The position numbers are program-made. A stretch of DNA of 43,678 bases from the IMG/VR virus record IMGVR_UViG_2531839668_000011, positions 1 through 43,678 of that record. One strand, given 5' to 3'. Shown in pieces: positions 9,001 to 15,000 of the stretch (position 1 is the first letter of the stretch; each line of letters begins with the position of its first letter). Origin of the DNA: a virus (taxonomy: Duplodnaviria; Heunggongvirae; Uroviricota; Caudoviricetes).

Positions 9001-12000
9001 CTGGTGGGTGTTAGGGGCACCCACCAGCCATCTGCTCATGCGTTGGGTTCACAAGCAAACCTCAGGCCCACTGCTTTGCGCAAAAGCAGAATGAGCCTAT
9101 CAGAGACAGGCTTAATGATCCATGCTTAATACTGTAAAAATATCCAGTTGTGAGTTAATCAACGCCGACTGCCTGGAATTTATCCGGTCGTTACCCGAAA
9201 ATTCTGTTGACCTGATAGTCACGGACCCGCCGTACTTTAAAGTGAAGCCTGAGGGCTGGGATAACCAGTGGAAGGGCGACGATGATTACCTGAAGTGGCT
9301 GGACCAGTGTCTGGCGCAGTTCTGGCGGGTGCTGAAACCTGCCGGAAGTCTTTACCTGTTCTGTGGTCATCGCCTGGCATCTGATATCGAAATCATGATG
9401 CGTGAACGCTTCAGTGTGCTGAACCATATTATCTGGGCGAAGCCGTCCGGACGCTGGAACGGATGCAACAAGGAAAGCCTGCGGGCGTATTTCCCCGCCA
9501 CAGAGCGCATTCTGTTCGCGGAACATTATCAGGGGCCGTATCGCCCGAAAGATGCCGGGTATGAGGCGAAGGGCAGGGAACTGAAACAGCATGTGATGGC
9601 CCAGCTGATTTCTTACTTTCGTGATGCACGCGCGGCCCTGGGGATAACGGCAAAACAGATTGCAGATGCCACAGGAAAGAAAAACATGGTGTCGCACTGG
9701 TTCAGTGCCAGTCAGTGGCAGCTACCGAACGAAAGCGATTATCTGAAATTACAGTCGCTGTTTGCCCGGGTGGCAGAAGAGAAACATCAGCGGGGAGAAC
9801 TGGAAAAGTCCCATTACCAACTGGTCAGCACATACAGTGAGCTGAACCGGCAGTATATGGAACTGCTGAGTGAATATAAAAATTTGCGGAGGTATTTCGG
9901 TGTGACGGTGCAGGTGCCGTACACCGATGTGTGGACGTATAAACCGGTGCAGTACTATCCAGGGAAACATCCGTGCGAAAAACCGGCAGAAATGCTGCAG
10001 CAGATAATCAGCGCAAGTAGTCGTCCTGGTGATCTGGTTGCGGATTTTTTCATGGGGTCGGGTTCAACGGTAAAAGCGGCGATGGCACTGGGGCGTCGTG
10101 CGATTGGTGTTGAGCTGGAGACCGGACGTTTTGAGCAGACAGTCAGGGAAGTTCAGGATTTAATCGTTTGAAACGGATGAGATTGCAGAATTAATTACGC
10201 ACCATTATTATTCTGCTCCCGGCCCTTTAGCTCAGTGGTGAGAGCGAGCGACTCATAATCGCCAGGTCGCTGGTTCAAATCCAGCAAGGGCCACCATCAC
10301 ATACCGCCATTAGCTCATCAGGAAAGAGCGCCAGCCTTCGAAGCTGGTTGCGCGGAGTTCGGGTCCCCGAAGGCGGTCCATTATCTGTATCCTGCGTTGT
10401 TAGCTCAGCCGGACAGAGCAATTGCCTTCTAAGCAATCGGTCACTGGTTCGAATCCAGTACAACGCGCCACACTTATTTTCCCTGGCTCGCTTTTGCGGG
10501 CTTTTTTTTAAATGTCTCACAATTCAGGCGGTTGACTGTTGTCTGGTTTGCGGGGAGTTTGTTAAAAGAAACTGGCATGGTGAATCCCCCTGTGCGGAGG
10601 GGCAATCAGCGAGTAGGTATATGGGATAATCGCGGATTCAGGTGCTGGTACTGAATTCACCGGGAGGCACCCGGCACCATGCAATGGCACATAGCGCCAC
10701 TCTCCAGCCCCTCTCCGGAGGGGCTGTTTATATTGATTTTGTCAGATGTGAGTAAACTCCTTATGGACTTTGCTGTTTTAGTCCATAAGGACATATTTGC
10801 AGAGTGCAACGGTTATTAAAGCATTCATTCAATACGTTATCTGTATTTGTAGGGCATTCCTGGCTGTTTTTGATTAAATTCCAGAATGTTTTATTGAATG
10901 GTACTACGTTGTAAATGGTTACAGGTAGCACTTTGTTATTGAGCATGATACCTGTGTGAGTCAGTGTAAATATACTTTCAGGAGGTAAGAAAGCATCCGA
11001 TTGATACCAGATTATTAATTTTATTTTACTCCATATGACTGAAAAAGATATTCCGCATGATGGCTGGATAACTGTATCAATCACAATCCACTTCATTTAG
11101 TTTCCTTGTTTATGCCTTGCTGGTGTTGTTCTGAAAAGTATAAATGATAATTTTGAATGTAAACCATAGGGCAGAATTATTTTTCTGATGTTGTTTATTA
11201 TTTATTTAAATGCAGGGTGGTTTATACCTCGTCTTGTAGTTTATCCATGCATATCTGCTTTATGATGAGGTTTTTATTTAAGGTGTGGTTTTGTGTATTA
11301 CATGTCAGGTATCTTAAAGAATTATTTTTTAGATGGTGGAAAGAACCATGGCATTTAAACACTATGATGTTGTCAAGGCGGCGTCGCCGTCAGAGCTTGC
11401 GGAAAAGCTGACACACAAACTGAAAGAGGGCTGGCAGCCGTTTGGTAGTCCGGTGGCCATAACCCCTTATACCCTGATGCAGGCGATTGCCGCGGAGGGG
11501 GATGTGACCACGCCAGTGGTTGTGCCCGGCACGGGGGATGGTGGCCAACGGACGGGAAATCAGTGACAACGCTGCTTTATTACCGTGCAACAGAGTCAGG
11601 TGGTTTACTGAATCCGCAGGGATGGGGAGCTGAAGGAGGGCGTGCATTGGTAGTTGATGATGCAGGTGCTGCAGGAGGTAAGGCGCTGAGGTGGACCAAA
11701 CAGACAGGAAGTTCCTCGTGGTTTATGCAGCATGATGCCGGTAATGGCGCAGACCTGCTGGAGAAGGGCGGGCTTATCAGTTGTCGTTTTAAAGTTGATG
11801 GCATACTGACAGCTAATCAGTACGCACTGGCGCTGTACTGGCCGGTTTCTTCACTGCCTCAGGGCGTCACACTGGAAGGTAATGCCGGTCATAACCTGCT
11901 GGCGTCGTTTTACGTACAGAGCGATGCCACAGACCTTAATGTGATGTACTACAAGGGAAATGCTGGTCAGAACACGAAGCTGGGGTCATTCGGCGCATTT

Positions 12001-15000
12001 GATAACGAATGGCATACGCTGGGCTTCCGTTTTGCCGGTAACAACAGTATTGAGGTGACGCCGGTCATTGATGGTAAGGACGGGACGCCGTTCATGCTGT
12101 CACAGTCACCGGTCGGCACGTTTACGGCAGACAAATTGCGCGTGACCGATATCACTAGCGGTGCGACATATCCGGTGCTGATTGAAAGTATAACAGTGGA
12201 AGTGAATAACCCGTAAGCAGGAAAAAAAGGCCGCCGGGGCAGGGAAAACAAGGAGCCAGAACCGGCGGCAAATGTCGTTATATCCAAAGCAAAACATGCA
12301 GGACACTTTTTTAACCAACAGGTATTAACGATGTCAACACCATATCAATAACCGGGAGGGATAATGAGATTTGTACAGCTTATTTTATTGTATTTCTGCA
12401 CGGTGGTGTGCACGTTATATCTGGTAAGTGGCGGGTATAAGGTTATCCGGAACTATATACGCAAAAAGATTGATGCCGCGGCGGCGGAAAAAATCAGCGC
12501 CAGCCAGTCAGCCGGAACAAAACCCGAAGAGCCTCTCATTTCGTAGCAACTTTCTTAACAACACCTTTCAACGAGAAAATCCCATGTCAGAAATAAAATC
12601 TCTGGTCACTGCTGAAGCAGTGAAGGACGTCCTGCGCTCTGAAGAAGTCAGAAGCGCACTGAAACAGCAACTCCGCCAGAATCTTGAGGCGCGTCTTGAT
12701 GCTGAAGTGGATGCCATTCTGGATGAGCTGCTGGGGGGATCCGTTCCTGATGTCGTACTTCACTCAGACCACTGACGGCAGAGTGAATCTGATGCATCAC
12801 AGGAAAGCCGGAAACACGAAGCTGGGGGAGTTCGGCGATTACGGTAACGACTGGCAGACGCTGGAGCTGGTGTTCACCGCCGGCAGTGCCACGGTTACTC
12901 CGAAACTGAATGGAGTGGCTGGCCCGGCATTCCAGGTTATAAAAGACAGTCTGACACTGGGACTGAATGCGCTGACGCTGACGGATGTTACAAAAAATGC
13001 AGCGTATGGCGTTGAGATAGAAAGTCTGATGCTGGAGATAAATGCACCGGCAGCATAATAAAAAAAGCCAGCGCCCACTCTGAAGGACGCTGGCTAAAAC
13101 GGGTAGATGTACTTCACATGATACTTATATTTGGCAGTACATTTTCTGACAGACAGTGACGGATGTTGTCAAGATATTGTGTCATTTATAACCTGAATCA
13201 GGGGTTGGTCGGAATGTTATCTGGCATTTTTAGCAGAGCCTGAATGCCATAATCACGGCTCCCGGAGTTGGCCGTCAGTGGGTGACACTGGCGGCTTTTT
13301 GTTTTCCTTTACTTTCATTTTCTGTCGGCGGTGACGGAGACATACATCAGATGGAAAAAATCACAACGGGTGTGTCATACACCACGTCAGCGGTGGGGAC
13401 GGGATACTGGTTACTGCAGCTGCTGGACAAAGTCTCTCCGTCCCAGTGGGTGGCAATAGGTGTACTGGGGAGTCTGCTGTTTGGCCTGCTGACGTATCTG
13501 ACTAACCTGTATTTCAAAATCAGGGAGGACCGCCGTAAGACGGCGCGGGGAGACTAAAGCGATGAAGAAAAAATACGAACTGGTTGTTAAAGAGATAAAT
13601 AATTACCCGGATAAGATTGCTGTTACTGTGGCACTTGAAATTGGCGGGCATCCGTCGTTGTTGTTGCCACATGTGGCGATTAGTCTTGACCGTACTGAAG
13701 GTGCCACGCTGGAGTTCTACGAAGCTGAGGCGAAAAAACAGGCGAAGCAGTTTTTCATGGATATTGTTGCCGGGTTATGCGAAGGGGATGAACCGTCACC
13801 GGAAAAGCGCCCCGTAATTTTAGATGCGCAGGATGTATTGATAACCTACAAAGGAAAGCTACCGGGAAGAATTACTTGTTCTCTGAAGATGCCGCCGTCA
13901 ACACTGCGGTCAGAAAAAGATGATGTTGAATCGCGTATTGAAAAACTGGAGTGCTATATCGCTGAATTGAAAAAAAGCACCCCAACAAAAAATGAGGTGC
14001 TTGCAGCAGACGAAATGAAAGAAGCTATTCCTGATCGCGCGGCGAATCTAAGCTGCGCTTCATGGTTGAAAGAGCATCTTCAGCAGCCTGAAAAAAAACG
14101 CCGCGATGAGCAGTTTGCTGCGTTTTACGATTATTGCCGGAAAGTGATGAGCAGAAATCTCGCAGAGTGTTTCAGTATTCATAATGATAATTTCAGTGAC
14201 CTGGAATGGGAGTGTAACCGGCCATCCTTTGTTGTATCCGGTGATGCTGGGAAAATAACCATCTCAGAAAATGGAAAAGTAACACCGCCATCGCACCAGC
14301 ATAGTGAGGAGCTCATTGAATTTGCCATTGATTACCTGAAGAACAATAAAAAGCAGGGGCTGATGAAGTGCATTGGTCGTTGCATGGGATATCTGCAGAT
14401 AGCTGCTGAGATTGAAGCGCTGGCCAGTGGTGCGGACAAGGATGCAGTTGTGCGGGAGGCTCTTCTTCGTGATTTTGATAATCCGCCCTTTAAAAAAGTG
14501 CCGGCTTACTGGTTTCATCCAGGACTGACTTATCTTAAAGGACGTATATAAGCTGGCTCGTTATCTGTTGCCGATAAATCCTGATAAATATCCATGAACA
14601 CCAAAATCAAATACGGCCTGTCGGCTGCCGTTCTGGCGCTGATTGCCGCTGGTGCGCCTGCGCCTGACATTCTCGACCAGTTTCTGGATGAAAAGGAAGG
14701 TAACCACACCACGGCATACCGTGATGGTGCGGGGATCTGGACCATCTGCCGTGGTGCCATCATGGTGGATGGTAAACCTGTTGTTCCAGGCATGAAGTTG
14801 TCGAAGGCAAAATGCGCTCAGGTTAACGCCATTGAGCGTAATAAGGCGCTGGCATGGGTGGAGAAAAACATCAAAGTGCCATTGACCGAACCACAGAAAG
14901 CGGGGATTGCGTCATTCTGTCCGTACAACATTGGCCCCGGTAAGTGTTTCCCGTCGACGTTTTATAAACGAATTAATGCAGGCGATCGCAGGGGGGCGTG

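Follow-up and report, generated by a model that had tools for sequence, protein, structure and literature searches.

NanS-p, a prophage-encoded sialate O-acetylesterase, is specified downstream of stx in phage 933W and in many Shiga toxin (Stx) and non-Stx prophages (PMC10462455). Named examples are L0105 of 933W and vb_24B_21 (gp84) of phi24B. The protein is composed of an N-terminal DUF1737, a central SASA/SGNH 9-O-acetyl-sialate esterase and a C-terminal lectin-like jelly-roll, DUF6645, for which PDB 6YP6 (from phi24B) is the reference structure. The crystallised portion comprises residues 423-645, and roles of the domains have been described (PMC10462455; bioRxiv 10.64898/2026.04.10.717836). 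A 2026 preprint reports that the DUF1737 of gp84 is a capsid-decoration domain that binds central hexons of a T=9 capsid, that gp84 is proteolytically processed between its domains, and that the DUF1737 proteins of Pfam/InterPro are mostly single-domain proteins (10.64898/2026.04.10.717836). The slot occupied by nanS-p lies downstream of Q, the tRNA genes (and stx), and upstream of the holin gene S. The subject of this analysis is a block of small open reading frames (ORFs) at positions 11348-13058 of the IMG/VR provirus record IMGVR_UViG_2531839668_000011 (43,678 bp, CheckV completeness 69%; the entire stretch was analyzed and is referred to as the window). The block is found in this same slot, with the gene order of intact nanS-p relatives. 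It is very probably a decayed nanS-p region in the late operon of a lambda-like prophage, assembled from known genes by ordinary prophage decay.

The first half of the block, unit 1 (11348-12216), is by its alignments a single nanS-p gene that has lost its esterase through a deletion that also shifts the frame. At the same position, intact relatives have a single ORF of 616-647 codons that encodes DUF1737, SASA (sialate acetylesterase) and DUF6645; the reference used for unit 1 is L006, a locus of an O157:H7 prophage with an intact 645-residue allele. Positions 11348-11545 of the window match L006 2234-2431 with 97.5% identity, and positions 11546-12739 match L006 3501-4694 with 99.8% identity (BLAST). 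The 1,069 bp that separate these two collinear blocks in L006 (2432-3500, codons 67-422) are gone. The resulting deletion junction, placed at 11545/11546 by the BLAST blocks together with a junction alignment, is blunt and free of microhomology, with GATGGTGGC on its left abutting CAACGGACG on its right. (Division of 1,069 by three leaves a remainder of one, and the deletion accordingly moves the frame.) What remains on the left is the nanS-p 5' end (11348-11566, plus strand), a 72-residue ORF with an ATG start that retains codons 1-66, that is, the complete DUF1737 and the beginning of the linker, and then runs through six out-of-frame codons to a TGA. Its DUF1737 matches PF08410 over the whole profile (positions 1-53, E 1e-16) and shares 93% identity with an intact relative over residues 1-67 of the latter. 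What remains on the right (11546-12216, plus strand) is the nanS-p 3' end with its lectin-like jelly-roll domain (Pfam DUF6645, E 4.9e-70), whose frame is open from 11449.

SASA occupies residues 83-275 of the intact protein and thus lies wholly within the deleted codons; a search with PF03629 in six frames of the whole window gave no match, while control genomes did match. The one continuous ORF that is characteristic of NanS-p (~616-657 residues) is replaced here by ORFs of 72 and 217 codons in different frames. Because the entire esterase domain is deleted and the frame shifted, the locus is unable to make an esterase. Unit 1 resembles NanS-p in sharing its DUF1737 and its lectin-like domain, and differs from it in being a non-esterase remnant. 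An earlier, sequence-only reading of the window had correctly placed a DUF1737 gene first but had treated it as one gene coupled to a separate 217-codon gene, overlooking the deletion that had broken a single gene into these two pieces.

Sequence on the two sides of junction 1 also bears on how it was made. Positions 11453-11803, which extend 93 nt to the left and 258 nt to the right of the junction, are identical to the intact O157:H7-type allele, and all five mismatches of the left block are confined to 11351-11452. Divergence from the O157:H7 allele is accordingly very uneven, with 5 mismatches in 105 nt at 11351-11452 against 2 in ~1,290 nt at 11453-12739 (Poisson P ~2.5e-05). This indicates a boundary of homologous recombination within the DUF1737 coding part that is older than the deletion. 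(A search for an intact ancestor nearer to the left flank found none, the second-ranked locus reaching only 95.4% identity.) A one-event origin, in which a 1,194-bp type-A segment (11546-12739) had been patched into a type-B gene, is disfavoured on two grounds: one and the same O157:H7-type allele is matched without a mismatch on both sides of the junction, and to its left stands the type-A linker, a feature missing from type-B alleles. This makes junction 1 a simple deletion within the gene.

Unit 2 (12584-13058) is of a different make. ("Type B" designates nanS-p alleles of 616-618 residues that are directly followed by the holin gene, as in strains CD45 and UPEC69.) Its upstream ORF (12584-12775, plus strand; 63 residues from an ATG, plus the stop) is a truncated DUF826 gene (Pfam E 1.3e-27). 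The ORF is identical to an intact 89-residue gene for 52 codons, up to 12739, and diverges from it thereafter, ending with 11 foreign, out-of-frame codons and a TGA. The last 37 codons of the ~89-residue protein are lost and only positions 1-57 of the 75 in the profile are represented. In relatives, the intact DUF826 gene comes after the DUF1378 gene and is independent and conserved. The DNA that follows, 12740-13058 (plus strand), constitutes the last 106 codons of a type-B nanS-p and has two mismatches relative to the 616-residue CD45 allele. Collinearity with the type-B locus continues through the intergenic region and the holin gene into the start of ydfR (12739-13897, ~94% identity). A three-way alignment puts the junction of DUF826 with the type-B 3' end at 12739/12740; it is an illegitimate join at which a single nucleotide (A) is shared and the two frames differ, and a block boundary appears at 12739 against L006 and L010 alike.

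In contrast with the intact type-B genes (CD45, WP_434523319.1; UPEC69, WP_458150304.1), the remnant is confined to these 106 codons, out of frame behind the truncated DUF826. It covers no more than profile positions 44-115 of DUF6645 (E 2.9e-09), roughly half of the lectin domain, and would not be expected to fold independently, since only that half of the jelly-roll is left. Although its frame is open from 12684, it has no credible start: Shine-Dalgarno (SD) pairing is 0 for TTG 12684 and -3.2 kcal/mol for ATG 12792.

Both junctions, as judged from these alignments, are recombination scars, left by two events. In one, the blunt 1,069-bp deletion within nanS-p removed the whole esterase domain and moved the frame by one base, so that the DUF1737 part stops six codons past the scar and the lectin domain, now in another frame, has no start available except an internal GTG. 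The other event joined codon 52 of DUF826, through one shared nucleotide, to the 3'-terminal 106 codons of another, divergent nanS-p gene with its own holin. Such a join would be the expected product of an unequal crossover between lambdoid phages that resided in, or infected, the same cell, one with the order nanS-p, DUF1378, DUF826, holin and the other with nanS-p directly followed by the holin; the 3' end of nanS-p would thereby have been duplicated. Q-dependent transcription of the late operon probably still runs through the pieces, which as pseudogene debris would yield by-products at most, a 72-residue DUF1737 peptide and a stand-alone lectin domain.

Decay of nanS-p has a parallel in phage vB_EcoS-733R4 (ON470607, L005 2386-2744), in which a DUF1737 ORF overlaps by 4 nt a 53-residue ORF derived from the end of the lectin domain, with the holin next in order. 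That deletion is an independent event: it affects a type-B allele, is larger, lies between CTGGCC(G/C)GGCA repeats (CTGGCC), and leaves ~46 C-terminal codons, with a TGG-to-TGA change ending the DUF1737 ORF. The parallel suggests that nanS-p is repeatedly lost in lambdoid phages. In further agreement with decay, the window copy of the prophage also lacks capsid and tail genes.

The same two junctions, base for base, occur together in 8 of 5,426 complete Escherichia coli genomes, and in none of the 5,426 is either scar present alone. Three IMG/VR contigs likewise have the two junctions side by side. The carriers include O157:H16, O55:H7 and O2:H16 strains from dog, chicken, food and human sources, and all copies of the scarred allele are ~100% identical. 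Since the scars are shared and co-occur, they mark a single prophage lineage. Over the region of interest, the window and the chromosome of E. coli O157:H16 98-3133 agree at 100% identity, and the seven other complete genomes with the whole arrangement are 98.4-99.9% identical to the window there.

Two accounts of the arrangement would do without this history. Mis-assembly of repeated nanS-p copies from several prophages could in principle create both the deletion and the fusion, and the gene is indeed repeated in E. coli (median 2, and up to 20, matching places per genome) in a way that can confuse assemblers; that identical junctions would arise in eight independently sequenced complete genomes of differing serotypes and hosts, and in three further IMG/VR contigs, is hardly credible. 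The sequence-only reading, for its part, took unit 2 for a tandem duplicate of unit 1, later frameshifted, with the 64-codon ORF as its displaced front part. The likeness on which it rested is real: the two C-terminal segments, both DUF6645, are true if distant homologues, with 38% amino acid identity over 109 residues (BLASTP E 7e-19), and the ORFs of unit 2 do lie in different frames. Unit 2 does contain a truncated copy of the C-terminal domain. However, this copy is no recent duplicate of the first: 38% is far from what is seen at the DNA level with the remnant's own allele type, from which it is only two mismatches removed; between the remnant and the unit-1-type allele BLAST finds one weak match of 85 nt at 75% (window 12786-12864). 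The 64-codon ORF is no displaced front part: its 52 native codons are those of DUF826. (The proviso that both short ORFs might turn out to be independent conserved genes thus holds for the DUF826 ORF, and fails for the remnant, which is a nanS-p fragment.) The break, at 12739/12740, is a recombination joint and not a frameshift. The junction alignments by themselves already refute the duplication model, which is left very improbable.

A further alternative is that the deletion created rather than destroyed something. It could have given rise to two working genes, one for a DUF1737 capsid-decoration protein and the other for a free lectin-like carbohydrate-binding protein, translated by coupling at the GTGA stop/start overlap or joined by rare -1 slippage on the heptamer G_GGA_AAT (11554-11560), a slippery-type sequence 4 nt before the stop. 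Several observations weigh against simple decay and favor such a split. Both unit 1 ORFs are uninterrupted and each encodes one complete structural domain. The 72-residue ORF contains residues 2-57, the capsid-bound domain resolved in the phi24B preprint (10.64898/2026.04.10.717836), in which the prevalence of single-domain DUF1737 proteins and hexon binding by the DUF1737 of gp84 also lend the idea some substance. The 217-residue ORF (11563-12216) matches PDB 6YP6 over residues 1-216 (E 5.4e-97, 69% identity); its GTG falls at residue 424, the second residue of the construct used for the crystal, and the four aromatics proposed for sugar binding (Y510, Y515, Y540, F611) are all conserved. Because this GTG overlaps the upstream stop and is preceded by a modest SD-like match (-6.2 kcal/mol, 6-nt spacing; about that of the holin gene and weaker than that of DUF1378), some translation of the ORF by reinitiation is plausible. 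Finally, the copy of the prophage in O55:H7 DEC5B has both scars and yet is complete in its head and tail genes, so the scars are compatible with a possibly viable phage.

Against a functional split, both the GTG and the heptamer already belong to the normal reading frame of intact nanS-p, with nothing shaped for a new role. Among 5.8 billion proteins, searched at stand-alone lengths only, there was no class of stand-alone lectin genes and no diverged stand-alone DUF6645 family: the matches are this same allele (99%, 217 residues) and contig-end fragments, 'partial' pieces of full-length esterases. Programmed -1 frameshifting can be set aside, since the 80 nt downstream of the heptamer fold no better than shuffled sequence (z = +0.45), providing no stimulatory structure, and since the split is not conserved, relatives having one continuous ORF. 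The host phage is lambda-like, with head genes of the gpD/gpE type in the DEC5B copy, whereas binding of DUF1737 has been shown for a T=9 podovirus, and the window copy has no capsid gene at all. (A search of the PDB for a solved DUF1737 structure gave chance matches only.) RefSeq (PGAP), moreover, calls all four pieces incomplete pseudogenes in the 100%-identical locus, the 72-residue ORF 'missing C-terminus' and the 217-residue ORF 'missing N-terminus'. Two working genes are very unlikely. A more specific variant, in which the scarred allele would live on as an esterase-less, capsid-displayed glycan binder, with the 72-residue DUF1737 peptide docked on capsid hexons, is distinctly unlikely, and the same low expectation attaches to the two routes taken together by which its lectin domain might be made, free through GTGA reinitiation or fused to DUF1737 through occasional -1 slippage. 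If it were true, phage or lysate would carry a module for binding sialoglycan or mucin without receptor-destroying activity.

Under the favored explanation, decay of a known gene, the finding is of little weight in itself; the gene families are already known and the pieces already flagged as pseudogenes in RefSeq. The prophage adds no NanS-p esterase activity, which is relevant to counts of functional nanS-p in attaching-and-effacing E. coli. The scars at 11545/11546 and 12739/12740 provide exact markers of one prophage lineage in at least 8 complete genomes of various serotypes and hosts. For annotation, they are a caution that neatly 'coupled' small ORFs past a lambdoid tRNA cluster can be domain-sized fragments of nanS-p instead of new morons.

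The surroundings of the block are those of a lambdoid late region in a lambda-like E. coli prophage. A DNA methyltransferase gene (9122-10171) is followed by a tRNA cluster on the plus strand (10221-10470; ARAGORN) comprising an Ile2-type CAT tRNA, Arg-TCG and Arg-TCT, the counterpart of ileZ-argN-argO in Stx phages; RefSeq labels the CAT tRNA tRNA-Ile in the locus of 100% identity. Between the cluster and the block lies a single gene, an intact iraM on the minus strand (10761-11096), which encodes an anti-adapter protein (NCBIfam NF007393, E 4.7e-48, bit score 162 with the cut-off at 121; RefSeq WP_000871291.1). ORF lists, family searches and the RefSeq annotation of the identical locus disclose no stx-like ORF or other toxin gene between the tRNA cluster and the nanS-p remnants. 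The sequence-only reading had said as much, had described a moron block where Stx phages carry stx, and had located its ORFs accurately, all of which stands: the block is accessory cargo in a lambdoid late region, at the site equivalent to that of stx. What it did not mention is an intact DUF1378 gene of 60 codons between units 1 and 2 (12364-12546, plus strand; Pfam E 5.8e-40 over the full profile length). Genes for DUF1378 and DUF826 are known from Stx and Sp prophages; the window DUF1378 has the same accession, WP_001213059.1, as that of the O157:H7 prophage, whereas its DUF826 has 52 native codons in place of 89, and the 11-codon foreign tail.

The block ends, and the lysis cassette begins, with a class II holin gene of the phage 21 S type (13351-13557, plus strand, RefSeq coordinates; Pfam Phage_holin_2_1, E 3.5e-32), which stands in type-B context. 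A YdfR-family ORF and then lysozyme lie 3' of it. The former is a 329-codon ORF (13562-14551) of which the first ~100 residues are YdfR/DUF1327, and its YdfR part is an incomplete pseudogene according to RefSeq; positions 13898-14571 have no counterpart in the two loci compared. Farther along, an S49 head protease ORF (21281-22786) is directly followed by a C-terminal tail-fibre fragment (22862-23263) and four NleG-family effector genes (nleG; region 21281-26248). The copy of this prophage in O55:H7 DEC5B does have the head-decoration, capsid and tail genes that are missing from the window copy.

An A-run with a GC-rich hairpin is found 3' of each of the two nanS-p ends (12217-12275 and 13066-13095). 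On the minus strand both elements read as intrinsic terminators, a hairpin and then a T-run, and the one at 13095-13066 is called by a terminator scan; such minus-strand terminators may stop antisense transcription from entering the late operon. On the plus strand, a terminator-like hairpin at 13270-13296 (11 pairs, followed by TTTTTGTTTT) lies within the late operon, ~55 nt upstream of the holin start, and is presumably read through under Q antitermination.

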